In this document: positions 2,366 to 19,587 of the stretch, one piece after another
Position numbering within the stretch: the first letter of the stretch is position 1
Layout: each line of letters starts with the position of its first letter
Origin: a virus
Taxonomy: Duplodnaviria > Heunggongvirae > Uroviricota > Caudoviricetes
IMG/VR virus record: IMGVR_UViG_2563366928_000013
Strand: one strand, 5' to 3'
Length of the DNA: 19,587 nucleotides
Program-made: the position numbers and the translations under genes
The notes under the pieces: generated by a model
What the model was told of the DNA's origin: nothing
The model's input: the letters and a program-made list of their open reading frames with translations, nothing else
Database searches by the model: none

Positions 2366-2796
2366 TGGAAAAGAAAAACCGCCCATTACAGGCGGCTAAT
2401 TCAGATATTCGCGTATCTGATATTACGCCCCTTACAAAATCCCTTCAAGCACCAAAGCGCACACCGAAAAAGCATCGTGCCCGAGTCTATATGCTGCGTA
2501 CTGGTATAGAGGGATGGACAGAAAATGACATTCTTCGCTACTGCCGTCTGTCTTCTGGTCGTAACTATGCAACAGAGTTAGAACGCCAGCTTGGAATCAC
2601 TCTGGAGCGTATCGACGAAAAGAATCCTGATGGTATCGGAACACACCTTCGCTACCGTTTCTCCTGCCGTGGTGATGTTCTGAAAGTGATCACTCATGTT
2701 AACCATCTTGCGAACATAAATGATCACAACGGACTTTCTCAGCAGGAAATTGCCGACATTCTGAAACTCTACCCGGACGCGTTTAACGCCGCCTAA
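2365..2796 (+). CDS. hypothetical protein, 143 aa
   Basis: ATG at 2365 overlaps the alpA stop (TGATG); RBS-like GGAAGGTGG upstream. No recognisable motif. Confidence 0.5.
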   Translation: MEKKNRPLQAANSDIRVSDITPLTKSLQAPKRTPKKHRARVYMLRTGIEGWTENDILRYCRLSSGRNYATELERQLGITLERIDEKNPDGIGTHLRYRFSCRGDVLKVITHVNHLANINDHNGLSQQEIADILKLYPDAFNAA

Positions 2797-2808
2797 CGGA
2801 GACTGAAA

Positions 2809-3642
2809 ATGAACATCGAAAAAAGCAGATTAATTTCTGAGGCCGCCCCTCATCTGAACGCCTCTCTGGGCACAATTAACGGTAATGAATTTGCCGCAAT
2901 TGTCCCGGTTATTTCTGGTCATATAGGTGGGCGTGAAACCAATATTGTTAGCGCAAAAGCGTTACACAAAGCGTTGGGCGTGGGAAAAGACTTCTCTACA
3001 TGGATCACTGATCGCATCTCTGAATATGACTTCACCATTGGGCACGATTACTCAGTCCATAAAACAATTTCCCCAAATTTGGGGAAAAGCCCGAATGGCG
3101 CGGCTTACAGCAAGATTAAGCACTCTGGCAGACCCGGCAAAGACTATCTGTTAAGTGTCGGAATGGCGAAAGAACTGGCAATGATCGAACGCAATGATCA
3201 GGGTCGCGCTATCCGTCGTTATTTCATCCAGTGCGAGGAAGAATTACAGCGTAGCGTTCCTGAAATCGCCGCCCGCTATCGTCGCCAGCTAAAAGCCCGT
3301 ATCAGTGCCGCAAACAACTTTAAGCCAATGTGCGATGCGCTGAACATGGCCCGTGCCGAGCAGGGGAAAACGACGCAGCAACACCACTACACAAACGAGA
3401 GCAATATGATTTCTCGTATCGTTCTTGGTGGGCTAACTGCTAAGCAGTGGGCGCGGATAAATGGCTATTCTGGCGAACCTCGCGACCATATGAACGCAGA
3501 ACAGCTTGAGCACCTCTCATATCTCGAAAGCACCAATATCACGTTAATTGATATGGGCATGGAATATGGGCAGCGCAAAGGAGAACTCACCCGCCTGTCG
3601 CAACGCTGGCTCGCCAAGCGTCTGGAGGCGGTCCATGTTTAA
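2809..3642 (+). CDS. phage antirepressor, AntA-like N-terminal domain plus KilAC/AntB-like C-terminal domain
   Basis: N-terminal VSAKALHKALGVGKDFSTWITDRISEYDFTIGHDY and C-terminal DYLLSVGMAKELAMIERNDQGRAIRRYFIQCEEEL resemble the AntA and KilA-C antirepressor domains from memory. GGAG RBS 9 nt upstream. Confidence 0.6.
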   Translation: MNIEKSRLISEAAPHLNASLGTINGNEFAAIVPVISGHIGGRETNIVSAKALHKALGVGKDFSTWITDRISEYDFTIGHDYSVHKTISPNLGKSPNGAAYSKIKHSGRPGKDYLLSVGMAKELAMIERNDQGRAIRRYFIQCEEELQRSVPEIAARYRRQLKARISAANNFKPMCDALNMARAEQGKTTQQHHYTNESNMISRIVLGGLTAKQWARINGYSGEPRDHMNAEQLEHLSYLESTNITLIDMGMEYGQRKGELTRLSQRWLAKRLEAVHV

Positions 3643-3817
3643 GCCGACAGGAACATCACAACCACAAAAACGCTACAAAGGTGCCCACGGAGCACTCGTT
3701 ACTGTCGAAAGCGTGTCTCACAACCGAGTGACGTTTTATCGCGACGGGTATCAATCGCCATGCGTACAACCGCTGGCACGTTTCATGAAGGAGTTCGCGG
3801 AGGTTAACAAATGCTAA
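3635..3817 (+). CDS. small hypothetical protein, 60 aa
   Basis: ATG at 3635 overlaps the antirepressor stop (ATGTTTAA), suggesting coupling. The longer ORF-track call from 3548 lies inside the antirepressor and is unlikely. Confidence 0.4.
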   Translation: MFKPTGTSQPQKRYKGAHGALVTVESVSHNRVTFYRDGYQSPCVQPLARFMKEFAEVNKC

Positions 3818-4878
3818 CCGTCCAGAAGAAGATATTTTCACTGGCTGGTATGTCGCCAAAATCCAGCAATATGACAGCAAAGTCAGGCATTAATACAGCA
3901 GATACAAGCAAAGTTTGTCATTTGCTGGTGGTAGGAGCGGATGCCTTAACCATGTCAGAAATTACGGTCGATGGTGTTAGCGTTGAGAAGGTCAGCGGCT
4001 GCGCCAGAGAATTTCTGGTCGTAGATGGCTTTCTCTTCTCGCGTAGTGACTCCACAAAAACCTTCGTCCATGCGCGTGACGTTAACGAAATGAGCGCGAT
4101 GTATTGTGCATCTGGTTCTTCCAATAGTGAGTTTTCGGAGTCCATAAAAAAGAGCTTGCCGTTATGCGGCAACACGGTTTATGGTTATAAGGCACCTCAT
4201 AAAACGGGTGCCGGGATTGGCGTCCTGAAAATTCGAAAGGCGACATATGACGCGCCGAGCGTCTTTTTTTATGTCGTAGGTCTGACTCACCCATTTTTTG
4301 GGCGTTGGTGTATAATCCAGCGCCTTTGTCAATCAATGGTGGCTCAGGCGGGGGCTTCTTCGGAAGCGCCGGTATCCTTCAGAGCCGGTTACGCCAACCC
4401 TGTCTGGGCTACCACCAGCGAAATTGGCGTTTCCGGTGGTAGCGTAACCCGCTATCTGAAGGAGGCTGCCACATGCTGGCTACTACCCCTACCCAAAAAC
4501 CGCAATTTATCTGGATTATCGCCGCAGTTCGCCGCGATTGCCCGACAATTACCGCCAAAATTCATCATATTGCTGCCGAGTCTGAACGCGATGCTCGCCG
4601 TTCTCTGGTGCACGATCACATCTGCTTTTTTGCTGGTCGTATCCGCATGGAGGTGGCACATGATTAAAACCTACGATGTGCATATGGACCCCCTCGAACG
4701 CACAAGCCAGATCATCACACTGACAGAAGTGATTAACGACATTCTGGTGAGCAACTCTCCCTTACGAGACGAAAGACTGAAGGCGTTACTCGCGATATTG
4801 GATCTCGCCGTTCGTGACGTTCATTTCCTGCTGGAAGGTGGCGAAATGCCAGTAAAAACGGGGGCAACCAATGAATAA
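3811..4878 (+). CDS. long open frame (355 codons) of uncertain validity; may be a real gene or a read-through across separate units
   Basis: A 356-codon stop-free frame is statistically unlikely by chance. Against it: a terminator-like hairpin plus T7 at 4249-4270 and a TATAAT at 4311-4316 sit inside it, and a strong GGAGGTG RBS precedes an internal ATG at 4660. Confidence 0.3.
4249..4270 (+). terminator. candidate intrinsic terminator (5-bp GC stem, 5-nt loop, T7 run)
   Basis: GACGC-GCCGA-GCGTC followed by TTTTTTT, read directly from the sequence. Confidence 0.35.
4473..4667 (+). CDS. small hypothetical protein, 64 aa; alternative to the long 3811 frame
   Basis: GGAGG at 4461-4465 with 7-nt spacing to the ATG; stop overlaps the ATG at 4660 of the next small ORF. 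Could be spurious. Confidence 0.3.
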   Translation: MLATTPTQKPQFIWIIAAVRRDCPTITAKIHHIAAESERDARRSLVHDHICFFAGRIRMEVAHD

Positions 4879-5065
4879 CTCAATTAATACTCCTCGCCTT
4901 ACGTCCGCACTTCAATTAATCGAGCAAGCAGCGGCTGTCCTGGTTGCTGTCAGTCTTTCGGCTGAAGAAATGGACGCTGCTGATGTCGTGGATGCGATTA
5001 AAGCGTGCTCATCTTTGGTTAACGATGCCCGTGCCGAGCTGGTAATTCTTGGGGGTGAAAAATGA
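4871..5065 (+). CDS. small hypothetical protein, 64 aa, in the coupled chain upstream of the primase
   Basis: Start overlaps the preceding stop at 4876-4878 and its stop overlaps the next start (ATGA at 5062). Confidence 0.45.
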   Translation: MNNSINTPRLTSALQLIEQAAAVLVAVSLSAEEMDAADVVDAIKACSSLVNDARAELVILGGEK

Positions 5066-5325
5066 ATATCAACTTAATTTATCGTCATCCGTGTGAGCTG
5101 GAAATTGAATCATTGCTGGGGCGCGAAGAGCCATATCCAGACACATTCACTCCCGCAGATTGCGCGACTGAACGGCTTACCAGAGCGCGCACAGGTCTGG
5201 TTCATGTGATGAATGAGATTGTTCCCTCGGTGGGAGGGGAACAGGCGACAGTAATCAATAGCTGGCTACAAAAAGTTACCTCCCTGATAGATATCGGTTT
5301 AATCGATGTGGAGAGTGCGAAATGA
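5062..5325 (+). CDS. small hypothetical protein, 87 aa, translationally coupled
   Basis: ATGA overlaps at both ends (5062-5065 and 5322-5325); RBS-like GGGGGTGA upstream. Confidence 0.5.
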   Translation: MNINLIYRHPCELEIESLLGREEPYPDTFTPADCATERLTRARTGLVHVMNEIVPSVGGEQATVINSWLQKVTSLIDIGLIDVESAK

Positions 5326-5543
5326 CCAACATCCAGCTCATTGAAGCGCAATGTCGCATCGAACAGGTTCAGACTGTTTTAGGGTTCTGGCTTGAAGGGG
5401 CCAGCCCCAGCAACAGAGACAAGTTAATGATTGGCGCGGTTATGTCACTGCTCAATGGCGTACCAGAAGCTATTCAGGAAGCGGACGAATTGTTGGGCAA
5501 ATATGAGTTACAGAATCATTCAGGCGAGGCGAAACATGAATAA
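5322..5543 (+). CDS. small hypothetical protein, 73 aa, translationally coupled
   Basis: ATGA overlap with the upstream gene; its stop at 5541-5543 overlaps the next start. Confidence 0.5.
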   Translation: MTNIQLIEAQCRIEQVQTVLGFWLEGASPSNRDKLMIGAVMSLLNGVPEAIQEADELLGKYELQNHSGEAKHE

Positions 5544-6138
5544 TTTCTTAACTTTCCATGCAGAAGCAACGCCTGACGGCGTAAACATCATGTACCGCAG
5601 CAACGATGGCATGACAGAACGCGTTGAGGCCGTCTCATATATTGATGCCGTAAATCGTCTGGATGCCGGGGATTATGACGATAAACCAGATGAAGGCATG
5701 TTTATACATCTCGCTATTGCCAGTGGCGGCAACCAGGGATATTTCGATTACACATCACAGCATCACGTGATTATGTGGCGCTGGCTGATAGCAACAGCAT
5801 TCATCAATGAAATGAGAAAGGAAAACGGCACCGTCAGCATTATTGATGACAGTGGCAATCATTCCGTGGTTTCTGTTTATTCCAATGGCATCGTCGCCAT
5901 GCCGCTGTATCCAGTAGCAGAGCGCCTCGCTATGGCAAACAACATTGAGGGCGCAATGATCGAGAAATATGGTGTTGATGTCGGAACAAAGAATGCCATC
6001 ATTTTTTACAGCAACATGTTCGATGTCGAACAGGGAACACTCACTTCGTTTGGGCGAGAAGTGCTTGCCGATCTTCACAACAGCTTTATTGCCGAACTAA
6101 ACGAAAACGGCATCCCAGAAGCACCAGTGACGCACTAA
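5536..6138 (+). CDS. hypothetical protein, about 200 aa, immediately upstream of the primase
   Basis: ATG at 5536 overlaps the previous stop (ATGAATAA); it is in frame with the ORF-track call 5431-6138 but the coupled ATG is the more likely start. Confidence 0.5.
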   Translation: MNNFLTFHAEATPDGVNIMYRSNDGMTERVEAVSYIDAVNRLDAGDYDDKPDEGMFIHLAIASGGNQGYFDYTSQHHVIMWRWLIATAFINEMRKENGTVSIIDDSGNHSVVSVYSNGIVAMPLYPVAERLAMANNIEGAMIEKYGVDVGTKNAIIFYSNMFDVEQGTLTSFGREVLADLHNSFIAELNENGIPEAPVTH

Positions 6139-6150
6139 ACGGGGGCCAGA

Positions 6151-8502
6151 ATGCGAAACATTGATCTTATCCGTCAGGTTATCAGTGCGTCTGAAAACAA
6201 CTGGCCTCATGTGCTGGGCTGCCTGAACATAAATGTCCCTGACTCTCCGCGCCGTCATGCTCCCTGCCCTGCATGTGGGGGCAAAGATCGATTCCGGTTC
6301 GATGACAACGGGCGCGGTAGCTTCATCTGTAATCAGTGCGGCGCTGGTGATGGGCTGGATTTAATTAAACGCGTAAATAACTGCGACACAACAGAGGCGG
6401 CGCTTCTTGCCGCTGATGTTCTGGGTATTGATTACCGGACAACGGAAACACCAGAAGCCACCAGCCAGAAACGGGAACAACTGGAAACCGAGCGCCAGCG
6501 ACGCGAACAGGAGCGCCTGAAAAGGGCAGAGAAGGACGAACAACAAAGACGGGATACGTTTTCCCGTCAGTTTGATGACATGCGCAGAAAGGCTGTAAAC
6601 GGCAAATCTGATTATCTGGTTGCGAAAGGGGTAGGTGATTTTACATTCCCCGTGTTGCCCGATGGATCTCTGTTGCTGGCGCTGGTGGATAAATCCGGCG
6701 CAGTCACAGCAGCACAGACTATTACCTCACATGGTGAAAAAAGACTCCTGACAGGTTCGGCAAAGCGGGGGGCATATCACGCCATAAACGCACAGAAACG
6801 ACCTCACAGCATCATAATTGCTGAGGGGGTGGCTACCGCCCTGTCGTGCCATTTAATTCGCCCTGACGCAATGACAGTGGCAGCAATCGACGCTGGCAAC
6901 CTGTTGCCAGTAGCGGAAGTCATGCGCAGAACATATCCGCAGGCACAAATCATCATTGCCGCAGATAACGATCACCAGCAAGGAGACTCAGAAAGTGGAG
7001 GGATCAACACGGGGAAAGATGCCGCAGAGAGGGCCGCTATTTCCGTAGCTGGCAGGGTGTCTCTGCCACCGACTGACTATAAAGCCGACTGGAACGACTA
7101 TCACCAACAACACGGGCTGGCGGCAGCCACAGCAGCATTTAAAGATTCGATGTACCAGCCACGGGGGAAAGGGGCGCAGGTGAAAAATCACAAACAGTCA
7201 GTCGGGGCGCTGAATGAGATCAGTTCTGGCGAGGTGTTAAGCGATGATGAAATTGCTGTCCTCGAAGAAATCAACCGGACGTTTACGCATGTCACCATCG
7301 GCGGGAAACACAAGGTGGTGTCGCTAAAGCCTTCTCAAACCGGCGGTGTATCGCACGTTTTCGAGGATTTATCACAATTTCAGCATTATTTTCATCATAA
7401 ACCGAGAGTCGCCAGAAAGCTGGCGGGATCGGCGTGGCTGTCATGGAGTGGGAAGAACTACAAGCCAGGAGGCGTAGGATTTTATCCAGTACCAGACAAA
7501 TGCCCTGACGATGTTTTTAATCTGTATGAGGGGCTGGCACTGGAACCAATTGAAGGAGATTGCACGGTATACCTTAATCACCTGTTGCAGGTTGTCTGTG
7601 CCGGTAATGAAGAGGCATACCAATATCTTATCCAGTGGATGGCGCACATTATCCAAAAGCCTGATGAAAAACCGTCCGTGGCAATCGTGATGAAATCTGT
7701 CCCGGGCACAGGGAAAGGCACAACGGTTAAACCGCTGCTGCAAATACTGGGGCAGTACGCCGCCCACATTAACGGGGCGGGACATATTTCAGGGCGCTTC
7801 AATTCAATACTTGCTAACAAGCTACTGGTATTTGCTGACGAAGTGACGATCCACAAGCCGTCTGAAGCTGACAGACTTAAAGCGATTATTAGCGAACCGA
7901 CGTTTAACCTTGAGCGCAAGGGAATTGATGCTGAACCAATGCCGAATTTTGCCCGGTTGATATTTGCCAGTAACAGCACACAGGTATTACAGGCAGGGAT
8001 AAGAGAGCGTCGCTATCTCGTGCTTGAGCCATCTCCTGAAAAAGCACAGAGCCGGGAGTATTTTGATCGGCTGTACAGTTGGCTTAATGATGGCGGTGCC
8101 GCAAAGTTGCTTTGGCATCTTAAAGGGGTGGATCTCTCAGGTTTTGACCCTCAACGAGCGCCACAGACCGATGCCTTACGTGAAGAAATCTTGCTGGGGC
8201 TGTCTGGCGTTGAATTGTTTCTTTATGGCGAGCTAATCAATGAACCTCCGTTTAATGGCGAAGTCCGTTTGTTTGCAAAGGATATGGTTAGTCGGTTTGT
8301 AGCGTGGTCGCTTGAGCGTGGGGAAAAGCTTAAAGAACCAGCTGCCAGATCACTACTGGGTAAATCACTTGCACAAATGGGGCTGGTGAAGCATGGAAGA
8401 CCAGACCGAGGGAATGGCGTGTTCTACGAACTACCAGAGGTCGGAGTTCTACAGGCTGCGTTTGCCCGTCTGATCGGTATGGGGGGTTATGATGTTTTTT
8501 AA
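6151..8502 (+). CDS. P4 alpha-type bifunctional primase-helicase (783 aa)
   Basis: N-terminal zinc-binding CPACGGKDRFRF...CNQCGAGDG, a TOPRIM-like IIAEGVATALS...DND segment, and a C-terminal P-loop NTPase with Walker A VPGTGKGTT and Walker B LLVFADEV. RBS GGGGG 6 nt before the ATG. Confidence 0.85.
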   Translation: MRNIDLIRQVISASENNWPHVLGCLNINVPDSPRRHAPCPACGGKDRFRFDDNGRGSFICNQCGAGDGLDLIKRVNNCDTTEAALLAADVLGIDYRTTETPEATSQKREQLETERQRREQERLKRAEKDEQQRRDTFSRQFDDMRRKAVNGKSDYLVAKGVGDFTFPVLPDGSLLLALVDKSGAVTAAQTITSHGEKRLLTGSAKRGAYHAINAQKRPHSIIIAEGVATALSCHLIRPDAMTVAAIDAGNLLPVAEVMRRTYPQAQIIIAADNDHQQGDSESGGINTGKDAAERAAISVAGRVSLPPTDYKADWNDYHQQHGLAAATAAFKDSMYQPRGKGAQVKNHKQSVGALNEISSGEVLSDDEIAVLEEINRTFTHVTIGGKHKVVSLKPSQTGGVSHVFEDLSQFQHYFHHKPRVARKLAGSAWLSWSGKNYKPGGVGFYPVPDKCPDDVFNLYEGLALEPIEGDCTVYLNHLLQVVCAGNEEAYQYLIQWMAHIIQKPDEKPSVAIVMKSVPGTGKGTTVKPLLQILGQYAAHINGAGHISGRFNSILANKLLVFADEVTIHKPSEADRLKAIISEPTFNLERKGIDAEPMPNFARLIFASNSTQVLQAGIRERRYLVLEPSPEKAQSREYFDRLYSWLNDGGAAKLLWHLKGVDLSGFDPQRAPQTDALREEILLGLSGVELFLYGELINEPPFNGEVRLFAKDMVSRFVAWSLERGEKLKEPAARSLLGKSLAQMGLVKHGRPDRGNGVFYELPEVGVLQAAFARLIGMGGYDVF

Positions 8503-8678: not shown

Positions 8679-8909
8679 ATGATGAGCACACCATTTTACA
8701 AAGTGCGCCAGTTAGCTTCTTCCTCTGGCTGGCAGCTACGGTTTGAGGGGCGTTCAGACTGGCTACCCATTGCGGCATGGGCGAATGTTGAAATGTGTAT
8801 TGACGGCGATACCGTTGAAATCATTATTCCCTGCGTGGCAAGTCGGGACGGCTGTATAGAGCCAACAGATATGGCAGCAGAAATCAGAGAGGTAAAACAT
8901 GAGCAATAA
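8679..8909 (+). CDS. hypothetical protein, 76 aa
   Basis: RBS GAGAGGGA upstream; overlaps the next gene by 11 nt. Confidence 0.45.
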   Translation: MMSTPFYKVRQLASSSGWQLRFEGRSDWLPIAAWANVEMCIDGDTVEIIIPCVASRDGCIEPTDMAAEIREVKHEQ

Positions 8910-9636
8910 CTATTGCATACCGCAGGGAATGACCAGAACGGAGCGCGAAGAATTAAAAAGTTTCGCTACACAGTGCGGGAATGCTGGCGACATCCAAAGT
9001 CTGGAACGCACTTTAATTATGATTGCGCACTGGATGCGTCAGGGGCAAAGGGTTTCATTTACTGAATATGCCAGCCAGTGGACAGAGGCACAGCGCGAAC
9101 GGAGCGACGGTAATCACTCAACACCCGAAATGGCGAAGCAATGGCCTTTCAGTGGTAAACGCTGTATCAGTCCCGGTGGTTCAGATTATTACCCTGCTGG
9201 TGTGGGAGATGAGCCATGTTGTGACGAGACTGAAATCCGCCACGCAGTGACAGTAATTACCGCTGAATACCCACAATTTAACCTTGACGGACTGGCGCTC
9301 CACAACCGGAATGCGGACTGGGAAAAACCGCTTGATAACCCGTCATTTATCGTATCGGCGAAAAGCTGCCTGAGATGGATCAGAGACAACGGGATGAGTA
9401 ATGCCCAGATTGAGAGCTTCCCGCAGGATAACCCCACATCTGACACGTTGAAGCATGAAGTGGAGCGATATAACCAGATAAACCACCAGCACAGTGATCA
9501 CCCGCACTATATCCCCAACGGAGCATTTATTGCGGCGATGGTGGCAAGCGGCTACAAGGTTAAGCCAGCGGGAAGAATGAACGCATTTTTCAATATTTCA
9601 AAAAAGGGATTATGTGCTGCTATGAGTAAAAATTAA
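8899..9636 (+). CDS. hypothetical protein, 245 aa
   Basis: GAGG RBS 7 nt before the ATG; coding-like length and composition. No recognisable motif. Confidence 0.55.
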   Translation: MSNNYCIPQGMTRTEREELKSFATQCGNAGDIQSLERTLIMIAHWMRQGQRVSFTEYASQWTEAQRERSDGNHSTPEMAKQWPFSGKRCISPGGSDYYPAGVGDEPCCDETEIRHAVTVITAEYPQFNLDGLALHNRNADWEKPLDNPSFIVSAKSCLRWIRDNGMSNAQIESFPQDNPTSDTLKHEVERYNQINHQHSDHPHYIPNGAFIAAMVASGYKVKPAGRMNAFFNISKKGLCAAMSKN

Positions 9637-9746: not shown

Positions 9747-10110
9747 AAAAACAGCGATTTTCTTTATAAGGTATGTTTTGCTCATCTGGCAGACGGAGGT
9801 ATTCGCTGCGGTTTGGCACGTAGCCCAGAACAGCAAAGAGTTTTACGAGACTTTTGTAAAATCCAGTGTACAAGGGCGTGACGTTTTTGAAGGAGAGACC
9901 TACGAAATTTTCGTAGTTCAAAAAATAGCCTCTGAGATGTTGTTATGCCTGTTCAGCAAACCATCCGCATAGCTGATCGCGAATCAAATTACCAATGGAG
10001 CCAGAAGCAAGGGCAGAACTGAAAAGCACCTGCCGTGAAGAGTAATGCGACACCATAAATATAGTTTTTAGAGTCCATAAAAAACCTGTCAAAACCTGAC
10101 ATACAGAACG

Positions 10111-10143
10111 ATGCCACCAGCTACTGAACGGTGGCATTTTTTT
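10111..10143 (+). terminator. intrinsic terminator (8-bp stem ATGCCACC/GGTGGCAT, then T7)
   Basis: Read directly; closes the replication-module transcript before the cargo cassette. Confidence 0.6.
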
Positions 10144-10238
10144 GTGCTATTTGTTTCATATTTTGCAATCACAATGATGAATATTGCGTTTTATGAAACT
10201 ATAATGACTGTTGTTTTATACAGTTCTAAGGGGGCGTT

Positions 10239-10412
10239 ATGGCTATTTCAGTAAAGCCGGTATTGATAAGTGAGAAGCAAATGGAAGCGATAAAGAAAAT
10301 TCAGGAGGAGCAGCGTAAAAAATCAGAGGTAGGAGTTGCGCCAACGATCCACGAAATTGCTCGGGGATTAATGGATAAGGCGCTGGCTTACACTTTAACT
10401 GGACGTGGGTAA
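10239..10412 (+). CDS. small hypothetical protein, 57 aa, possible DNA-binding regulator; first gene of the cargo cassette
   Basis: RBS AAGGGGG before the ATG; below the ORF-track size cutoff. Strand-then-helix pattern (VKPVLIS then EKQMEAIKKIQEEQ) is loosely ribbon-helix-helix-like, which is inference only. Confidence 0.35.
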   Translation: MAISVKPVLISEKQMEAIKKIQEEQRKKSEVGVAPTIHEIARGLMDKALAYTLTGRG

Positions 10413-10416
10413 ATCA

Positions 10417-11760
10417 ATGGCTACGTGGCAACAGGGTATTAATTCTGGTGGGTTTCTTGCTGGCATCGGTGCGCAAAATGAGAATGCGCCAAAGGCAAGC
10501 GACATTAACGCAACGCTTGGTCTGATCCGCGAAAACAATGAATTGGCTCGATCAGGTGCAAATAACGTTGCTCTGACAGGTCTTCGTGGTCTGGCTGGAG
10601 TTGCTGATATTTATAAGCAGCAGCAACAGCAGGAACGTAAAGCAGCATTCCAGAAAGGTTATGCGGATGCTTATGCGTCCGGCGACAGGGAGCAGATGCG
10701 TAATCTTATTACAGCATTCCCCGAAGAGTTTGAGGAAGTCCGTAAAGGCATGGGGTATGTCGATGACGCCCAGCGGGATGATTATGGCAATCTGGCGCTC
10801 AAAGCACAGGTAGCCTCATCGCTTGGTCCGGGCGCATTTGGCAGGTTCATGATGGATAATGAGCAGGAGATGCGTCGTTTAGGTATCCCTCCAGAAACTA
10901 TTGCTGAAATGCAGGTTAATGACCCGCAGGGCTTCCAGCATTTCGCAGGTAATCTGGCGCTGTTTTCTCTCGGTCATGAGAAGTACTTCGATATCAAAGA
11001 TCGAATGGAAGGCCGTCGACTTGAGCAAGGGCGACTGGATGAAAGTATGCGTCAGGCTGACATGGAGAACGCGAGAGGATGGGCAAATATCCAGAACGCT
11101 CAACTAGACAGGGCTCAGCGGGCACAAATTCACTCAGATGAGATGGGATTGAAGCTAATGGAGCTGGGGCAAAAAGGTAAGCCGTCAGCAGACTTAATTA
11201 AGGGATTAAATTCTGATATTACCAATTTTGGCAAAAATTATAACTCTGTCAGAGCGGCAGCAAACTCTCTGCAAGCCCTTAGCAAGGTAAATACTGGCGC
11301 TGCCCAACTTGGGATTATCTTCAACTACATGAAATCTCTTGACCCGCAGTCAGTCGTTCGTGAAGGCGAACAGGTTCAGGTAATGCGGTCTGATGGCATA
11401 TGGGGACAAATCAAAGGTTACATAGACCAGCTTAATGCTGGAAACGGCCTGTCGCAGGAGGCAAAGGATAACATTGTTAACGCCGCAAAAATCAACGCCA
11501 ATGCTATGGGGCAGCAGTTTAACCAGCAGGTTGACGAATATCTCGATACATATGGAGAAACCATTCCTCAGGGGCTAAGAAAAAGCCTTGAAAGAAGGAA
11601 AGCGAAGCTATTTGACGATGTTTCCGGGCAGCCTACATCACAGGCTGGCACTGGGCAGGCAAAAGCGGCAACCGGAGGAATATCAGAAGGCGCAACGGCA
11701 ACCAACCCTAAAACTGGTCAGAAAATTATTTACAGGAACGGAAAATGGCAGCAAATGTAA
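10417..11760 (+). CDS. hypothetical protein, about 447 aa, Gln/Asn/Ala/Gly-rich with predicted coiled-coil; no enzymatic motif seen
   Basis: Long ORF; ATG at 10417 is in frame with the ORF-track GTG at 10405. No Walker or nuclease motifs found by eye. Stop overlaps the start of the next gene. Confidence 0.6.
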   Translation: MATWQQGINSGGFLAGIGAQNENAPKASDINATLGLIRENNELARSGANNVALTGLRGLAGVADIYKQQQQQERKAAFQKGYADAYASGDREQMRNLITAFPEEFEEVRKGMGYVDDAQRDDYGNLALKAQVASSLGPGAFGRFMMDNEQEMRRLGIPPETIAEMQVNDPQGFQHFAGNLALFSLGHEKYFDIKDRMEGRRLEQGRLDESMRQADMENARGWANIQNAQLDRAQRAQIHSDEMGLKLMELGQKGKPSADLIKGLNSDITNFGKNYNSVRAAANSLQALSKVNTGAAQLGIIFNYMKSLDPQSVVREGEQVQVMRSDGIWGQIKGYIDQLNAGNGLSQEAKDNIVNAAKINANAMGQQFNQQVDEYLDTYGETIPQGLRKSLERRKAKLFDDVSGQPTSQAGTGQAKAATGGISEGATATNPKTGQKIIYRNGKWQQM

Positions 11761-13862
11761 TCTTACCGGAAGGTTTTGTGCTCGATGAACAACCTGATAA
11801 CTCACAGTTTCCTGATAGTTCACAGCTTCCTGATGGTTTTGTGCTTGATGCCCAACCAGAACAGCAGCAATCACCTTTGGTTTCACCATGGGAAAATTCC
11901 AGACAGGAAAATGTTGTTAATAATGCTAACGGTTTCGACCGTTTTATGTATGGCGTTCTCAGTGGATTGATGGATGTTGGTAAAGGTGTTGGCCTGTTTC
12001 AGGATATGACACCAGAAGAGCAAGCCGCAATTCAGTCTCTACAGCAGAAGTTAGCGGCAAAACCATCAACCGCACAAGATGTTGGTGAGTTCGTTGGACA
12101 AGCAGCACCATTTGTTAGTGGTGGTGGGATTATTTCTCAGGTTCCGAAAGGGGCGGCAAGGCTGGCTGCCGCCGCAGGGCTTGGTGCTGGAGAAGGGGCT
12201 ATTGTAGCCAATGGAACAAATAGCGATGTTGCTTCCGGCGCTGCTATTGGCGCTGTGGCTGGCCCTGTAGCCGAACTTGCTGGCCCTGCAATTAATAAAA
12301 TAGCTGGGAAATTAACCAAGAAGAATGTTTCTTCGATTCCAGATATTGAGGGGATTACTCCTGCCGAAGAGAAAATTCGTAAGTTATCTGCACAAGGCAA
12401 CCCAAATCTTGCCTCTTCGCTTGAAGGGCTAGATCTAAAACCTCAGAAAGAAATTGTTGAGGCTGCAAATAGGCTTCATGTTGATTCAGTTCTTCCTTCT
12501 CATTTTTCAGGAAATGAGCAATACCAAGCTGTAGAGCAAGCCCTAAAGTCACGGACAGGATCAGCGTTAAAAGCTCAAGAAGATAAAGCAATAAGCGAAT
12601 TAGCCTCTAGTGCTGGCAAGATAATCAATGATGTTGCTGGTGCGCCAGATGCGTTAGCTATGAGCGAAAAATATATTTATCAGATAAATAGTAGAATGGA
12701 AGCACTAAAAAACCGTAGTGATCAGTTATATAAACGTGTTGATTCCGCTCTATCACCAAGAACAAAAGTCGAAGCAAATAACACAAGCACTATGCTGGAA
12801 AAAATCGCTGATGATTTAGGTGGGTGGGATAATCTTGACCCAATAGAAAAGCGAGTTTTTACAGCAATAAACCCCGGCCCAGATAGCATCCTAACGTATG
12901 CAAATTTAAACAGGCAAAGGCGTTTAGTTGGTGATGCCCTAAATAAAAAGCAGGGGCCATACAAAGATGCTGATAAAGAAGCGCTATCAAGACTATATGG
13001 AGCTTTAGCTGAAGACCAAAAATCTGTCTTATCCAATACTGGATACTTGCGAGATTTCGAAGTCGCACAACGCCTTGTAGCTATGAGAAAAAACTTAGAA
13101 AGGCAAATGGTAAATCTTCGCGGGAAAACACTTAATGGGGATATAGCGTATAAAGTAACGAATTCTCTTCAATCTATGGCAAAAGGTGATGCGAGAGGGT
13201 TTCGTGAGATTATGCAAAATACTCCATCAAGAACATTGCGAAGGGAGCTAGTAGGAACAGCATTAAGAGATATGCTTTCCTCTGGAAAGCGCGGGGCCGA
13301 CTTTAATCCATCTGGCTTTGCAGATTGGTGGCAAAACTTGCAACACAGTGGACAGCTAAAGACTTTGGCTGAACATTTGCCAAAAGAAACAATGAGCGGA
13401 CTATATGATGTATACAAAGTTGCCAGAGCAATAAAAAATGCTAAAGCGCATGAAATATCTACTGGTAAGCTGAATGAGTTTGTAAACAGATTTAATCGGG
13501 TAACAGCTCCATACGAACTAGCAGCAAAACACATTCAAAAAATAGGCACGATGATAGGCGCTCATTTTGGATCGCTTGGAGCCATTGCTGGGGCTGATAT
13601 TGGAGCAAGATTGGCGAGTAAAGCTCGATTAGCTGGTGGAGCAGGGGCGGCTGATGCTGCGGATAAATTAATTGCCTCGCCAGCCTTCCAGAGCGCAGTA
13701 AAAAATCTACACGGAAAAGCGCCTGGGCACATTGTTGATTCACGTATTAGGCGCTCCCCTCAATGGAAGAGTTTTTTTAACTCTCTTCCTGAACAGGAAA
13801 AACGGACCATCGCCCGACTGGGCATCATTACTTGGCTATCTAATGATCCAGATAATGACTAG
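11745..13862 (+). CDS. hypothetical protein, 705 aa; N-terminal PEGFVLDEQP / PDGFVLDAQP duplication, two Gly/Ala-rich glycine-zipper-like segments, long helical middle
   Basis: ATG at 11745 overlaps the upstream gene by 16 nt. Composition read from the translation; no P-loop or catalytic motif recognised. Confidence 0.65.
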   Translation: MAANVILPEGFVLDEQPDNSQFPDSSQLPDGFVLDAQPEQQQSPLVSPWENSRQENVVNNANGFDRFMYGVLSGLMDVGKGVGLFQDMTPEEQAAIQSLQQKLAAKPSTAQDVGEFVGQAAPFVSGGGIISQVPKGAARLAAAAGLGAGEGAIVANGTNSDVASGAAIGAVAGPVAELAGPAINKIAGKLTKKNVSSIPDIEGITPAEEKIRKLSAQGNPNLASSLEGLDLKPQKEIVEAANRLHVDSVLPSHFSGNEQYQAVEQALKSRTGSALKAQEDKAISELASSAGKIINDVAGAPDALAMSEKYIYQINSRMEALKNRSDQLYKRVDSALSPRTKVEANNTSTMLEKIADDLGGWDNLDPIEKRVFTAINPGPDSILTYANLNRQRRLVGDALNKKQGPYKDADKEALSRLYGALAEDQKSVLSNTGYLRDFEVAQRLVAMRKNLERQMVNLRGKTLNGDIAYKVTNSLQSMAKGDARGFREIMQNTPSRTLRRELVGTALRDMLSSGKRGADFNPSGFADWWQNLQHSGQLKTLAEHLPKETMSGLYDVYKVARAIKNAKAHEISTGKLNEFVNRFNRVTAPYELAAKHIQKIGTMIGAHFGSLGAIAGADIGARLASKARLAGGAGAADAADKLIASPAFQSAVKNLHGKAPGHIVDSRIRRSPQWKSFFNSLPEQEKRTIARLGIITWLSNDPDND

Positions 13863-13881
13863 TGAATGGCCACGGATGGCC

Positions 13882-14238
13882 TCAATCTTTATTCTTTGAA
13901 ATAGAGTCATTGATCTTTTCGAAACACCAATGAAATCCACAAAAGAGAGCTACACCAATATAACAATACAAAACTATCAACCACCTTTCAGTGTCCGAAG
14001 GGTAAAAAACATCAATTATATAAGCAACACCAATTGGTATTAATGCTAGTAATAACATCGACATAGGACGTACAAACTTCTGAACTATATCAATTTTATA
14101 GAACCACAAGGCGGTATGTTTAATGATATAAGTAAAGATGGCTGCGCCAATAATGGCAAAAAACACCATCGATAAGGTCGGGTATAACTTTGCGACAATT
14201 AAACCCAACAAAATAATTATAACTGCCTGCCCCCTCAC
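13882..14238 (-). CDS. small hydrophobic membrane protein, 118 aa, about 3-4 predicted TM helices
   Basis: GTG start with AAGGGGG RBS on the minus strand; hydrophobic runs IIILLGLIV, VFFAIIGAAIFTYII, LLLALIPIGVAYII, IVLYCYIGVALF. Convergent with the 705-aa gene, 19-bp gap. Confidence 0.5.
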   Translation of the reverse strand: MRGQAVIIILLGLIVAKLYPTLSMVFFAIIGAAIFTYIIKHTALWFYKIDIVQKFVRPMSMLLLALIPIGVAYIIDVFYPSDTERWLIVLYCYIGVALFCGFHWCFEKINDSISKNKD

Positions 14239-14353
14239 ACCAACCCCCTTTAGCGTTGTTTAGAATGGCAATCATCATATATCCAAGACATGGCATTTGG
14301 TACATAGCTTGGGTCGGGATTTCAAATCCGCCCCCAGTTGATGGGGCCGTTAC

Positions 14354-14727: not shown

Positions 14728-15107
14728 GCGTAGCATCGAAATTATCGGATGGCGTATGCTGCTGGCAATATGAAGACCGATAGTATTAACCGAAAAGCGA
14801 TTAAGGAGTGCCAACTTTTCAGTAGAGAAACTAGACAGCATAGGAAAATGTAGAAATTACCCAATTAATAGGTAAAAGTTATTGACACAGCCTGTAGTGG
14901 ATAACGATATGAATAAAAACCACATATAGTGGTTTTTCGTGAGTGATGATAGTACCTATGTTAGTTTCCTAAGTAACTGTGCATTGACATGTGGATAACT
15001 TCGGATAGAGTTACAGGCAACCGAGCCCGATCCTCTGTTTCTCCGCCGCCGATTTCAGGCATGTGAGTTTCACGGTCGGGCCTTTTATTATCTTTTGTTT
15101 CGCCACT

Positions 15108-16085
15108 ATGATTGCCGCAAAGCCTCATAAGGACTATCACGAATTGCTAGGATTGCTACTTGAACGTGGCATGATTATCAATGATCGAAATCGTGCGATA
15201 CGTAAGCTGTCGCAGGTTGGATATTATCGATTGTCAGGTTTTTGGTACCCATCAAGAATTATTGCGACAACAGATAAAGGTCTTTCGTACAGAACAGACC
15301 GATTTCTTACTGGTACCAGTTTCGAGAAGACGTACGATCTATATCTTTTTGACAAAAAACTGCGTCTTTTGATGATTGATGCTATCGAAAGAATAGAGAT
15401 TCATGTTCGTTCAGTCATCGCGCATGAGGTTGGTCGCAATGATCCACTTGCCTACATGTCATCAAAATACATTAATCCAAAATTCTCATCTGCCTTCGAG
15501 CATTGGGTGTATAAGCAAAAAGTAAAATTAGACGAAAGCAGAGATGACTGTATTGAATGGCATCGAAGCCAAGGCAAGGAGATTCCATTTTGGGTGGCGG
15601 TGGAGACCTGGGATTTTGGTCAGATGTCTAAATATTATGCGATGCTTAATGGTCATATGCAGGGGAAAATTATACGTCGTTTTGGCATTGATAATAAGCA
15701 GACATTTGCAAAATGGTTGAAGTGCCTTAATCTCATAAGGAATCGTTGCGCTCACCATTCCAGAATATGGAATAGAAAGCATCCCCGAGTTCCAGTACCG
15801 GATAATGAATACTTTGACGGACTTAATCTCCATCCAGAGAGTTGCGAGAGGATTTTTAGCGCGATCTGTATTATCTGGTACTTAGTTAAACGACTTGGTC
15901 CGGGATCAACATGGCTTCGGCAAATTGCAGACCTTATTGACTCTAAACCAAATGTTCCCGGATGTGGATATGATTCAATGGGTTTACCTGCTAAAGGATT
16001 CCCACGAGAGAGATTCTCTCAGGACTTAGGTTTTGTTATCGCCGACAACGACCCTGTAGCTGAAGGGCGGAAAGGGAGCGATTGA
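15108..16085 (+). CDS. Abi_2-family abortive-infection protein (AbiD/AbiF-like), about 325 aa
   Basis: Motifs LSQVGYYRLSGFWYP, IERIEIHVRSVIAHE and NLIRNRCAHHSRIWNR match the Abi_2 family as recalled. ATG at 15108 preferred over the ORF-track GTG at 15063; no clear SD at either. Confidence 0.55.
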   Translation: MIAAKPHKDYHELLGLLLERGMIINDRNRAIRKLSQVGYYRLSGFWYPSRIIATTDKGLSYRTDRFLTGTSFEKTYDLYLFDKKLRLLMIDAIERIEIHVRSVIAHEVGRNDPLAYMSSKYINPKFSSAFEHWVYKQKVKLDESRDDCIEWHRSQGKEIPFWVAVETWDFGQMSKYYAMLNGHMQGKIIRRFGIDNKQTFAKWLKCLNLIRNRCAHHSRIWNRKHPRVPVPDNEYFDGLNLHPESCERIFSAICIIWYLVKRLGPGSTWLRQIADLIDSKPNVPGCGYDSMGLPAKGFPRERFSQDLGFVIADNDPVAEGRKGSD

Positions 16086-16114
16086 GCGATAAATATCATT
16101 TATACACTGATCAA

Positions 16115-16555
16115 TTACTGAAGCAGCGTATTGATTCTTTTAATATTGTTACCCTGACGCTTCCACGCGCTGTAAATGTCTTTATCCCACGCTTTACCAG
16201 CTTTTGTTTGGTAGCCTGCTTCATTGAGCCGTTCAGCTATCACACGCCCATTATCAAATCCCTGTCGGATGGTATCGGCAATGATCTTTATAACTGCCGT
16301 TTCGTTATATGGCTTTGGTGGGGTGTTCGGCTTTCCGGCAATAAGCGATGCTGCGGCTTTTTCCATGCGCTCCACCAGCCCAAGCATTCGTGAATCAATA
16401 GACTTTTCCGGCTGTCCCAGCTTCATGCGAATCGCATCAACAAGCCAGGAGGTTTTATCCCCTCCAGAAGCGAGAACAGACCGATTAAACTCATCCTGCA
16501 ATTCAGATGGGATGCGGAACGCGATCAGATTAGATTTGCTCATTGCAAAGACCAT
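16115..16555 (-). CDS. putative DNA-binding protein, 146 aa: RHH-like N-terminus and recombinase-domain-like C-terminal segment
   Basis: N-terminus SKSNLIAFRIPSELQDEFNRS is strand-helix like; C-terminus VIAERLNEAGYQTKAGKAWDKDIYSAWKRQ resembles the IA..LN..G..T..G..W pattern of recombinase DNA-binding domains. Convergent with Abi_2, 29-bp gap. Confidence 0.45.
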   Translation of the reverse strand: MVFAMSKSNLIAFRIPSELQDEFNRSVLASGGDKTSWLVDAIRMKLGQPEKSIDSRMLGLVERMEKAAASLIAGKPNTPPKPYNETAVIKIIADTIRQGFDNGRVIAERLNEAGYQTKAGKAWDKDIYSAWKRQGNNIKRINTLLQ

Positions 16556-16814: not shown

Positions 16815-17102
16815 ATGATAAAGGACAGGAAAGCTGAAGAGCTGGAGTCAAAAGGGCTATACCGGAGAGCTGCCGCACGATGGGCAGAAGTCATGATGCT
16901 GGCAGATGGCGATAAAGAACGTGAACATGCAGCAAACAGACGCTCTGAATGTATCCGTAAGGCGGCACGCCCACCAGCAACTACAGACAGATTCGGAGAT
17001 TTAAGACAGGCAGTTAAGCGGACTCATTCGGCTCTTGGTATGGATGAGGAAGCGAGAGGGTACTTCAGGCGTTATCGCGATAAAGATTGCCAGAGACAGT
17101 AA
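16815..17102 (+). CDS. PerC-family transcriptional activator-like protein, 95 aa
   Basis: N-terminus KAEELESKGLYRRAAARWAEVM resembles the PerC/Pch family as recalled; GAGAGG RBS 5-6 nt upstream. Confidence 0.45.
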   Translation: MIKDRKAEELESKGLYRRAAARWAEVMMLADGDKEREHAANRRSECIRKAARPPATTDRFGDLRQAVKRTHSALGMDEEARGYFRRYRDKDCQRQ

Positions 17103-17829: not shown

Positions 17830-19050
17830 TCAGTACGCCATATTCAGTTTCCCATAGTGGAACATAACTCCCAGTTTAAAGCGTTCCCGGTTTCGGTATC
17901 CCCTGGCCTTTATCCTCAGCAGTCTGATCTTGCTGTTCAGCGCCTCCGCATTTCCATTCGAGACGCGATGACGCATTGCATTCAGTATTCCGTATAACCG
18001 TTTTTTAATGGTTTTCGCTGCGTTTTTCATCATCGGCACATCACATTCAGACGCCAGCGATATCCACTGCAACCAGTCATTCCTGCGTTCTGTGCTCCAG
18101 GGGCGATCCCAGATATTTTTTGCCAGCTCTTTCAGTGTCCAGCACTGGCTTGTCTGTTGCATCTGTTCCCGCAACCACATCAGCTTTTCCTGCCGGGACT
18201 CAGTCATCCATTTGTCGCTGTACTGCCACAGGAAGCGGGTACCTTTGGCCTGACGACGACTTTCAACAGGGAGGTGCGGATGTTCATTCTGGCGGGTTTT
18301 ATCAACCACTTCGCCCAGTTGCTTCGCCACATGGAAGCGATCGAAGGCGATTTTCTCGACCGCATTGGGTAAATGGATACGCGCTGCTCTTATATAGCCC
18401 GCATTCATGTCCATCGACAGTGTTTTGATGGCCAACAACTGACTGTCAGTAAGCGAACGGAGATAGCTGGCAAGACTCTCTGTGCCACGATCATCGGTTA
18501 ATGCCAGTGCCCGCCCGTCGCGATCAGATACCACGGTTATATACCTATGCCCTTTTTTAAAGGCGACTTCGTCTACATTCATATGACGCACTGATAAAGG
18601 CTTTTTAATCCGCGACAGGCCTCGCTTAACCGCGCGGGTCATGATGCCGTCAACGGCATTCCAGCTAAGTTTAAGTTGTTTTCTGACCGCATCAACGGTG
18701 CTGATTTTAAGCCATGAGAGCACGAACGATTCGAACAGCAGAGTGTACCGACTGCCGGAACCTGCCCACGGTACAGGCAGAGTCTGGCAGCCATGCTCCG
18801 GGCACATAACGCGGGGAACATCGGCTTCTACTAATGTCATGAACTGGCAGGTATCAAGGTGGCGCCATTTACGATGTCGGTGATCGTGAACAGAACAGGA
18901 TTTCCTGCAGGTCGGACAGGTTAACTGAGTATTTTCAGCAATTCCGACTGTAACAGTAACGGAACCTGCATTTTCATCGAGGGTAAGGGATTTAACCTGC
19001 CATGGTGCAGTCAGGTTAAGGATATGGGCATAGAGGGATTTTTCGTCCAT
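17830..19050 (-). CDS. ISL3-family transposase, 406 aa
   Basis: N-terminal zinc-finger region CPTCRKSCSVHDHRHRKWRHLDTCQFMTLVEADVPRVMCPEHGCQTLPVPWA and overall size fit the ISL3 family as recalled. IS boundaries and terminal inverted repeats were not resolved. Confidence 0.7.
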   Translation of the reverse strand: MDEKSLYAHILNLTAPWQVKSLTLDENAGSVTVTVGIAENTQLTCPTCRKSCSVHDHRHRKWRHLDTCQFMTLVEADVPRVMCPEHGCQTLPVPWAGSGSRYTLLFESFVLSWLKISTVDAVRKQLKLSWNAVDGIMTRAVKRGLSRIKKPLSVRHMNVDEVAFKKGHRYITVVSDRDGRALALTDDRGTESLASYLRSLTDSQLLAIKTLSMDMNAGYIRAARIHLPNAVEKIAFDRFHVAKQLGEVVDKTRQNEHPHLPVESRRQAKGTRFLWQYSDKWMTESRQEKLMWLREQMQQTSQCWTLKELAKNIWDRPWSTERRNDWLQWISLASECDVPMMKNAAKTIKKRLYGILNAMRHRVSNGNAEALNSKIRLLRIKARGYRNRERFKLGVMFHYGKLNMAY

Positions 19051-19068
19051 ATAATTTCATTCTGAAGC

Positions 19069-19587
19069 TTACTTTAAACTGATATTATTATTTTTTGCCC
19101 ACTTTCTTAATCTTCCATTAGCGTTGGCGTAAGGCGAAGATGTGTTAAATGAGATCATTCTCCCCATCGTCCATTTTGTGTACCATGGTCTTCCATACAA
19201 AATATCATCGGTACGATCATTAATAAGGTTCACAATCTCATTTTTTACAGTCTGAAGTTCAGCTACTAACAACTCATAACTTAACTCACTGTAATCTGAG
19301 TAAAATTTTTGAGCAAGAAGGCCAAGCTGATTCCATTTATAGCCAGTTTCCGGAAAATCGACAGGCAGACCTTTAGCATCAGAAGCGATCCACTTTACAA
19401 CAAGAGCATTCCATCCAAGCAGATACGAAACGAGATCACGAACACTCATCTCCGTTCCTTTGGCGTGTCCGTCCATTGATTTATCTGAAGTAATTTCTGG
19501 TGGGATTGTGTTGAGGTAACTAATTAATTTACTAAAATTTTTATCAATAGCTAAAAGCAGTTCAGCTTTTGTTTGCGGCACACTCAT
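19069..19587 (-). CDS. ClbS/DfsB-like (DUF1706) protein, 172 aa; start codon at the last window bases
   Basis: Pattern GHAKGT...VSYLLGWNALVVKW...KWNQLGLLAQKFYSDY...YGRPWYTKWTMGRMISFNTSSPYANANGRLRKW matches my recollection of ClbS-like proteins. Its stop lies only 18 bp from the transposase start. Confidence 0.55.
   Translation of the reverse strand: MSVPQTKAELLLAIDKNFSKLISYLNTIPPEITSDKSMDGHAKGTEMSVRDLVSYLLGWNALVVKWIASDAKGLPVDFPETGYKWNQLGLLAQKFYSDYSELSYELLVAELQTVKNEIVNLINDRTDDILYGRPWYTKWTMGRMISFNTSSPYANANGRLRKWAKNNNISLK

Follow-up and report, generated by a model that had tools for sequence, protein, structure and literature searches.

Predicted homologues of the P22 ejection proteins gp20 and gp16 in an EcCIMP1-like phage-inducible chromosomal island

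The 19,587-nucleotide viral record IMGVR_UViG_2563366928_000013 (the window, by which we mean this whole stretch of DNA) carries at 10239-13862 a cassette composed of a 57-amino acid (aa) leader gene and two large overlapping genes. Almost certainly, the two large genes code for homologues of the ejection proteins gp20 and gp16 of P22-like phages, and the element that carries them is an EcCIMP1-like phage-inducible chromosomal island (PICI), a phage satellite. An earlier note, made from the letters of the sequence, had described a terminator, open reading frames (ORFs) of 57, 447 and 705 aa, a convergent membrane-protein gene and, in the 705-aa protein, a duplicated decapeptide and glycine-zipper-like segments, and all of these are present. 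The features of the cassette and its flanks are as follows, with positions numbered along the window.

10102-10146, + strand: Rho-independent terminator, ending the upstream (primase-side) transcription unit
10153-10199: dyad GTTTCATATTTTGCAAT / ATTGCGTTTTATGAAAC, inverted repeat I2, adjoining the -10 box
10200-10205, + strand: -10 hexamer, a perfect TATAAT, conserved across genera
10239-10412, + strand: 57-aa leader gene, ATG to TAA, part of the island backbone
10417-11760, + strand: gp20-type ejection protein, 447 aa, predicted periplasmic part of a P22-like DNA conduit
11745-13862, + strand: gp16-type ejection protein, 705 aa, predicted membrane-active, inner-membrane part of the conduit
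13882-14238, - strand: convergent ORF for a 118-aa multi-pass membrane protein with about four hydrophobic segments

The product of the first large gene matches the Pfam family Inj_translocase (PF16928), described there as "DNA/protein translocase of phage P22 injectosome", with an E-value of 5.1e-74 and 249.1 bits against a cut-off of 29.7. The match covers residues 16-223 of the 451-aa ORF that a mechanical search opens at GTG 10405 (about residues 12-219 of the 447-aa protein) and positions 1-208 of the 218-position profile, and phrog_917 is matched at 4e-134. RefSeq starts the gene at ATG 10417, five bases past the leader stop, where homology to phage gene 20 also begins; DNA similarity to Lederbergvirus phages (Kapi1, SEN22, E212 and others) sets in within about 10 bases of this position. 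The protein and Kapi1 gp20 are both 447 aa long and share 74.7% identity over 100% of the length, in a mosaic pattern in which residues 1-50 are nearly universal, residues 51-200 are of an island type and residues 201-447 are 77-100% of the Kapi1 type; identity to P22 gp20 is 54% over residues 1-212.

The second large ORF overlaps the first by 16 nucleotides (nt), and residues 1-701 of its product align with positions 1-706 of the 707 in phrog_6704 (1.2e-173); phrog_770, a 'DNA transfer protein', is matched at 1.3e-50. In tblastn searches the protein is colinear, at 99% coverage, with the third ejection gene of phages Kapi1, E212, EC.P3 and S.Kent, with 40-44% identity to the third ejection protein of the first three. 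Residues 1-150 are 76-100% of the Kapi1 type, and residues 204-701 are 62% identical to Sf101 (about 50-74% by segment over residues 200-705). No Pfam family is matched at E <= 0.01, including Phage_P22_gp16 (PF26808), and P22 gp16 itself gives no BLAST match to this allele; matches to PF26808, mostly faint or weak, are found in the Serratia and Citrobacter island homologues. As judged from the PHROG profiles and gene order, the 705-aa protein is a divergent gp16 allele type (Sf101/Kapi1-like). The decapeptide repeat is seen as LPEGFVLDEQP at residue 7 and LPDGFVLDAQP at residue 28, and GxxxG-type runs are located at residues 165-173 and 601-620. Neither large protein has sequence relatives in the PDB.

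The earlier note had called the function of the cassette unknown and had found no catalytic motifs by eye; the latter holds for inspection by eye only, the profile matches to phage ejection proteins being very strong, and Pfam and PHROG identify the gp20 and gp16 homologues. Its suspicion that the 705-aa protein looks membrane-active or of an ejection type was right, and both large proteins are homologues of P22-like ejection proteins. In RefSeq, the 701-aa gp16-type genes of several other islands (loci L010, L006 and L008) are labelled as 'incomplete, missing C-terminus' injection protein pseudogenes; these ORFs read through and are 93-100% identical to one another, and the label looks like an annotation artefact, not decay.

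In Kapi1 the gene order is gp14-like, gp7-like, gp20 (447 aa) and gp16-like (722 aa), and by sequence comparison the cassette is genes 20 and 16 of a P22-like phage, minus genes 14 and 7. Copies of gp7 and gp14 hidden further upstream were considered and rejected: the 245-aa (8899-9636) and 76-aa ORFs located there have no similarity to gp7 or gp14, and phage homology begins at the gp20 ATG.

Carrier island and promoter region

The genes of the window form a one-directional run in which an integrase fragment, AlpA, an AntA-type antirepressor, Ash, several small ORFs and a primase precede the cassette. The assigned features outside the cassette are listed here.

175-1029: C-terminal fragment of a tyrosine recombinase, split by an IS3-family element
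2147-2365: AlpA regulator, from family scans
2809-3642: AntA-type antirepressor
3811-4878: Ash
6151-8502: primase with Zn-ribbon, Toprim and DUF5906
15063-16085: Abi_2/AbiD, 3' of the cassette
16815-17102: PerC, 3' of Abi_2
17830-19587: ISEc53 (ISL3) transposase and a ClbS/DfsB-family gene, between PerC and dinD

Pfam and PHROG scans of the window's main ORFs and the RefSeq annotation contain no capsid, portal, large terminase, tail or lysis genes, and none of these are present in the relative islands at tRNA-Thr and yicC either; the ejection genes are the sole virion genes of the window. With no capsid, portal, terminase or tail genes in the window or its relatives, an intact or remnant prophage is ruled out. 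The earlier note had set against its own reading the prospect that both proteins would prove homologous to ordinary phage genes within a larger prophage; the confident homology to phage virion genes was indeed found, the prophage around them was not. The organization is that by which Gram-negative PICIs are recognized, with integrase, AlpA and primase genes co-directional, a length of about 10-20 kilobases (kb) and a fixed attachment (att) site. The closest characterized element is EcCIMP1, a functional PICI of E. coli MP1 under the control of alpA; it excises only with the P22-like phage Kapi1, which also transduces it (Pick, Stadel & Raivio 2025, PMC11773190).

RefSeq places the element between yicC and dinD in the near-identical genome NZ_OZ546911, with an IS3 element interrupting its integrase; the window itself opens with roughly 110 bases that form the end of this IS3-family element. 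Because the integrase is split in this way, the window's copy of the island is probably not mobile unless complemented. Relatives, sited at yicC or tRNA-Thr, keep an intact 422-aa integrase, and the cassette is found at 98.8% identity both in a tRNA-Thr island with a different integrase and in a yicC island that lacks Abi_2 and has another primase (DUF927).

The segment between primase and terminator (8679-9636) varies among islands: it holds the 76-aa and 245-aa ORFs here, neither with a family match, and a 152-aa ORF, SSB, ProQ or PerC elsewhere. At the right end, the ISEc53 and ClbS/DfsB segment is present in the strain of the window and absent in strain PKF4, and is probably a separate insertion. 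The Abi_2/AbiD gene is paired with a convergent 146-aa ORF (15063-16555). Some islands of E. coli, Serratia and Erwinia have this pair and others do not; it constitutes the island's true variable defence cargo. Proximity to Abi_2 had been the basis for proposing an anti-phage role for the cassette, and this argument is not supported, with Abi_2 present or absent among relatives and the cassette negative by PADLOC. In PADLOC-DB there is no match for the leader, the gp20-like and gp16-like proteins or the 118-aa ORF, and Abi_2 separately matches AbiD at 6.9e-58.

The terminator upstream of the cassette folds (10098-10150) at -20 kcal/mol, with z = -5.2 and none of 200 shuffles as good, and is followed by a run of seven U residues; a pattern scan also picks it (10120-10135), and it coincides with inverted repeat I1. 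A terminator-like hairpin with a T-run is equally placed in most of the aligned loci of other genera. The dyad that follows spans 47 base pairs (bp), with 17-nt arms that are 76% complementary and 13 nt apart, and its TTTCAT, TTGCAAT and ATTGC blocks are kept in E. coli, Leclercia, Serratia, Klebsiella, Raoultella and Erwinia loci. We regard it as a candidate operator or activator site. No -35 box is recognizable, and a sigma-70 scan gives no complete + strand promoter at the start of the cassette; because a perfect -10 hexamer stands without a recognizable -35, the cassette promoter probably depends on a regulator. Candidates for a protein acting at the dyad are the leader, AlpA, PerC and a helper factor. 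The combination of dyad and -10 box without a -35 is kept, irrespective of the cargo behind it, in islands ranging from E. coli to Erwinia (loci L006, L009, L015-L018, L022, L026, L028 and L031).

The leader gene has homologues in 290 protein clusters across the Enterobacterales, with 16-17 invariant columns, and has no Pfam or NCBIfam match and no match to a phage record at the DNA level. An AlphaFold2 (AF2) model (pLDDT 73) gives an extended segment at residues 1-11 and helices at 12-28 and 37-53. The top Foldseek matches in the PDB include ribbon-helix-helix (RHH) and TCP domains, all at E > 4 and not significant, the best RHH match being 7ycw_D (TM 0.66-0.73, likewise not significant). The model is compatible with a small regulator of possible RHH-like topology, and to this extent the regulator postulated by the earlier note is plausible; the fold matches lend it no significance, and the leader as a confirmed RHH protein was not upheld.

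The slot in E. coli and other Enterobacterales

We refer to the position directly after the leader as the slot. The leader and promoter (10100-10416) are present in 499 of 5,426 complete E. coli genomes, in which the gene directly after the leader was counted with junction-spanning queries. The leader is joined to gp20 in 217 genomes, to DUF2824 (gp14) in 258 and to an unknown 223-aa gene in 33. P22-type ejection genes lie directly 3' of the leader in about 475 of the 5,426 genomes (~9%), and in about 94% of the leader-bearing E. coli islands. Rather than stray cargo, the cassette is a core module whose content is exchangeable, and the accessory region in which the earlier note had placed it is in fact a core feature of these islands. 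The 223-aa protein of the variant that lacks ejection genes (L009, 8309-8980) is named 'peptidase M41 family' in RefSeq, and has only sub-threshold Pfam matches and no PHROG match.

The full cassette is intact in 85 E. coli genomes, and the islands concerned differ in integrase and att site (two of each) and in primase (two kinds). The trio does recur at the same position in related islands, as the earlier note had proposed to check. Its boundaries need to be redrawn. Homology between the window and EcCIMP1 ends at 10387, within the 3' end of the leader, and returns at 14311, and the unit exchanged between islands is therefore about 10388-14310, which includes the body of the convergent membrane ORF, whereas the 57-aa leader, with its promoter, is island backbone. 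The content of the unit is diverse, with at least three C-terminal types of gp20 and at least three types of gp16 in islands, the most distant being about 25% identical or without a detectable match. The C-terminal half of the window's gp16 allele is present in 87 E. coli genomes, all at >=99% identity and, among the loci opened, in islands only. Between island alleles, the ratio of non-synonymous to synonymous change (dN/dS) is 0.05 for gp20 (26.5 synonymous and 4.5 non-synonymous differences) and 0.19 for gp16 (8 synonymous and 5 non-synonymous differences); the gp20 and gp16 genes are under purifying selection and are selectively maintained.

Searches in other genera were anchored on the leader protein. 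Leader, gp20 and gp16 are found together in Serratia, and leader, gp14, gp7, gp20 and gp16 in Citrobacter, Leclercia adecarboxylata and an Escherichia species. Elsewhere the slot is filled by proteins of other phage types. In Leclercia sp. and metagenome contigs it holds a T7-like set of a T7_gp14-like protein, a ~890-aa SLT (transglycosylase-domain) protein and proteins of ~565 and ~850 aa; in K. pneumoniae, where the arrangement is very common, a 98-aa ORF replaces the T7_gp14-like gene before the same three large T7-type genes. Among the tape-measure types, Erwinia and other Erwiniaceae have full-length proteins behind a 108-aa ORF, K. quasipneumoniae has a tape-measure/transglycosylase protein with Dit, Raoultella a 605-aa tape-measure relative, and Serratia silvae a fragment from the N-terminal part of a tape-measure protein. 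The prediction that the slot would hold delivery proteins was set before three new lineages were viewed, and all three fitted.

A survey of IMG/VR gave the same result, with a delivery-type virion protein directly after the leader in 48 of 48 loci: P22-type ejection proteins in 15, T7-type internal virion proteins in 10, tape-measure types in 15 and a baseplate hub (phrog_196) in 8. A primase lies upstream in 43 of these loci, the other five having less than ~2.3 kb of upstream DNA, and P22-type coat, portal and large terminase (TerL) genes are found in none of the 48. The four devices seen in the slot are P22 E-proteins (ejection proteins), T7-like internal core proteins, tape-measure proteins with or without Dit, and a myophage baseplate hub, and these loci show that the slot of sister islands holds the genome-delivery device of a matched phage type. 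Islands of the tape-measure and baseplate-hub types have small-terminase-like genes downstream (phrog_51/57, DUF2280; L022 13168-14751, L087 11509-12111, L057 10827-11480), a classical PICI packaging-redirection function, none of which were seen in the window or in EcCIMP1.

These distributions bear on the idea that the cassette is a neutral remnant, a decaying and functionless fragment of the late operon of a P22-like prophage acquired by the island through recombination. The genes are indeed mosaic with Kapi1-like and Sf101-like sequence, the window's island has insertion sequence (IS) insertions and a frameshifted neighbour, and IS1 lies within the gp16-like gene in a few genomes. Yet both reading frames are intact, at dN/dS values of 0.05-0.19, and the cassette joins the leader region precisely. 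The arrangement recurs in Serratia, Citrobacter and Leclercia as well as in the ~475 E. coli genomes, and the slot serves four unrelated kinds of delivery protein alike, all of which makes a remnant highly improbable.

Proposed roles in DNA delivery and exclusion

On balance we favour the reading that P22-like podophages such as Kapi1 serve as helpers of this EcCIMP1-like satellite, that the cassette is its virion-protein module, and that the island supplies its own gp20 and gp16 to the particles. Experiments with phage P22 (Leavitt et al., PMC10461980) provide the background. The proteins gp7, gp20 and gp16 are ejected and build a trans-envelope DNA conduit, and foreign E-protein sets enter P22 virions and function. 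Sf6 gp7 can stand in for P22 gp7; Sf6 gp16 alone or gp20 alone gives assembled but non-infectious P22 particles, while the Sf6 16 and 20 pair works. The exclusion protein SieA is escaped by mutations in the C-terminal regions of gp16 and gp20, and the HK620 E-proteins confer partial SieA resistance (PMC10461980). Because of these Sf6 exchanges, gp20 and gp16 without gp7 would be the smallest self-compatible unit that determines specificity, and this two-gene minimum is what the window's island contains.

The mechanism that we propose, and hold to be about evenly poised between right and wrong, draws on these homologies. During lytic growth of the helper the island promoter would fire, possibly under control exerted through the dyad by the RHH-like leader, by an island or helper activator, or by both. 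Island gp20 and gp16 would then be loaded into helper-built procapsids, replacing the helper's own proteins or alongside them, and at the next infection they would be ejected and, with helper gp7, build the DNA conduit across periplasm and inner membrane. Since the pair works only with its cognate partner and carries determinants of SieA-type sensitivity, a satellite with its own pair would set its own DNA-entry specificity, which could include helper lysogens that exclude helper-type particles. Such lysogens are cells that a satellite, unlike its helper, gains from entering, which would select for satellite-owned variants evading SieA (for E-proteins) or HK97 gp15 (for tape-measure proteins); we hypothesize that the same rationale of exclusion evasion covers all four types of cargo.

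Several observations weigh against the delivery reading. EcCIMP1 is transduced only at a low rate (PMC11773190), and its sole reported phenotype, an addition to Kapi1 superinfection immunity that is seen in lysogens only, points to exclusion. The C-terminal half of the window's gp20 is nearly identical to that of Kapi1, mixed helper and island subunits might poison particles, and the window's copy looks partly decayed at its edges, with the integrase split by IS3 and the membrane ORF frameshifted. In three of three genomes that carry both, the alleles of island and co-resident prophage differ (gp20/gp16 identities of 26/24%, 59/45% and 38/23%), a mismatch that is expected by chance given the diversity of P22-like E-proteins. 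Co-occurrence of island and P22-like prophages is uninformative, the cassette being present in 2 of 60 Kapi1-like lysogens among the matches listed where about one is expected.

The same mismatched alleles would also suit assembly interference, in which progeny of an infecting P22-like phage would take up island gp20 and gp16 along with the phage's own proteins, so that the non-cognate conduit fails and infectivity drops, a defence at the level of the population. This would resemble the capsid-size redirection or tail-assembly inhibition practised by other satellites, which commonly disturb helper assembly (PMC11364771, PMC6893505), and P22 particles with mismatched gp16 or gp20 do assemble and are non-infectious (PMC10461980). 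But Kapi1 titres from induced lysogens are unchanged by EcCIMP1 (PMC11773190), the satellite's own particles would be poisoned too, and many islands hold the full gp14-gp7-gp20-gp16 set, which resembles a supply kit rather than a poison; we regard interference as decidedly unlikely.

Superinfection exclusion brings in the convergent membrane ORF at 13882-14238. In P22 the order is 14-7-20-16-sieA with sieA convergent, and the membrane ORF, a small inner-membrane protein, occupies the sieA position, its stop lying 19 nt from that of the gp16-like gene where sieA lies 23 bp after gene 16. Its identity as SieA was rejected and it is a positional analogue only: there is no BLAST match to P22 SieA at E <= 10, the FnRYPnEAnnFNK motif of SieA types A-C is absent, tblastn finds no phage match, and NCBIfam gives only sub-threshold, unrelated matches. 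Relative to the 131-aa allele of strain EcPF7 the ORF has a 2-nt deletion near its 5' end (14180-14320), which puts the first ~10 codons (MIAILN...) out of frame, and the 118-aa ORF restarts at a GTG.

A small envelope-targeted protein is encoded directly after the delivery genes in every island examined, and includes proteins with four transmembrane segments (two types), a secreted 146-aa protein, the lipoprotein of EcCIMP1, and Rap1a-family periplasmic proteins after T7-type sets. The convergent envelope ORFs share ~30 N-terminal residues across islands and then diverge to membrane or secreted proteins. By analogy with sieA, these post-delivery envelope proteins are candidate exclusion factors; the loci are as follows.

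Window: 13882-14310
L005: 17783-18178
L006: 13971-14360
L007: 12952-13392
L011: 11749-12447
L031: 16938-17315

In this alternative, the resident cell would make copies of the ejection proteins, perhaps along with the convergent envelope protein, and these would occupy or disturb the site at the inner membrane and periplasm where an incoming P22-like phage builds its conduit, so that its DNA could not enter. A regulated promoter belongs to the cassette itself, SieA acts on gp20/gp16, P22 keeps sieA after gene 16 just where the islands keep a small envelope protein, and the EcCIMP1 immunity in Kapi1 lysogens is seen in an element for which PADLOC and DefenseFinder report no known defence system (PMC11773190). 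However, that immunity has been mapped to the level of the island and fits the following envelope protein equally well, and the membrane ORF has no SieA similarity or motif and is frameshifted in the window. The ejection proteins are not truncated, and purifying selection acts on them from end to end, as would be expected of working virion parts; the parallel cargoes (tape measure, baseplate hub and T7 core) have no known intracellular exclusion activity. We consider exclusion unlikely as the role of the pair.

Returning to delivery, a wider and more doubtful proposal, which we put forward tentatively, is that a family of Enterobacterales PICIs keeps the ejected delivery device of its helper type in one regulated slot, and refits hijacked virions to pass helper exclusion. 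Satellites are thought to steal whole virions, altering at most capsid size, capsid identity or packaging specificity, and the regulated slot holds other delivery-protein types (T7-type core, tape-measure or baseplate-hub proteins) in Klebsiella, Serratia, Erwinia, Raoultella, Citrobacter and Leclercia. If the proteins are loaded into particles, the satellite and not the helper would set the host range and exclusion resistance of satellite-mediated transfer, which bears on the spread of the islands' defence and virulence cargo and would be a new class of satellite piracy, aimed at genome delivery and not at capsid or packaging. The cassette would also be a concrete candidate for the EcCIMP1 immunity phenotype, for which MP1 and Kapi1 are an existing genetic system.

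Relation to known systems

The PICI element type and the "DNA transfer"-like genes in EcCIMP1 are already published; EcCIMP1_017-019 were described as resembling "DNA transfer proteins and DUF2824", with a packaging role guessed (PMC11773190). In the searchable literature, which is incomplete so that a prior description is possible, we found no identification of the gp20/gp16 conduit pair, of the two-gene variant, of its core status or of the pattern across phage types, and on satellites encoding ejection, internal virion or tape-measure proteins only a passing remark (PMC11773190). SatelliteFinder leaves out candidates with tail profiles, tail-type genes being used as exclusion criteria (PMC10085698), which may be why the pattern has not been reported.

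The window's island shares with EcCIMP1 a backbone of AlpA, Ant, Ash, small ORFs, primase, leader and PerC, with 94% DNA identity over 2355-6136 and 93.6% over the terminator-promoter-leader region, and P22-type ejection genes in the slot after the leader. EcCIMP1 has four genes there, coding for DUF2824/gp14, gp7, a 439-aa gp20 and a 906-aa gp16 with a transglycosylase domain, whereas the window's island has only gp20 and gp16; the two gp20 proteins are ~25% identical and the gp16 proteins give no BLAST match (E <= 1e-3). The genes are followed by a convergent membrane ORF in the window and by a co-directional lipoprotein gene in EcCIMP1, and the window's island, with its DUF5906 primase and AbiD, is located at yicC|dinD, unlike EcCIMP1 at tRNA-Thr.

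In P22 the homologous genes have the same order, overlap or abut, and are followed ~20 bp downstream by a convergent gene for a small membrane protein, and P22 gp16 has similar glycine-rich, membrane-active segments. The window differs in having no gp7, gp14 or other virion genes, and in that the island promoter and leader, and not a phage late operon, drive the genes. SieA, HK97 gp15, Tai and Tab are prophage- or satellite-borne and target the same machinery (E-protein conduit, tape measure and tail assembly), but they are small dedicated inhibitors and not copies of virion proteins, and no homology to them was found in the cassette.

The nearest functional parallels are satellites whose virion parts join or reshape the helper-derived particle, namely the capsid-forming PICIs, P4 with Sid and Psu, and SaPIs with CpmAB and Ccm (PMC6893505, PMC10085698). 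As in the window, these virion genes lie 3' of the replication module, and they are expressed on helper induction. The capsid-forming PICIs, P4 and the SaPIs act on capsid size, capsid identity or packaging, whereas the parts encoded by the window are ejected delivery proteins.

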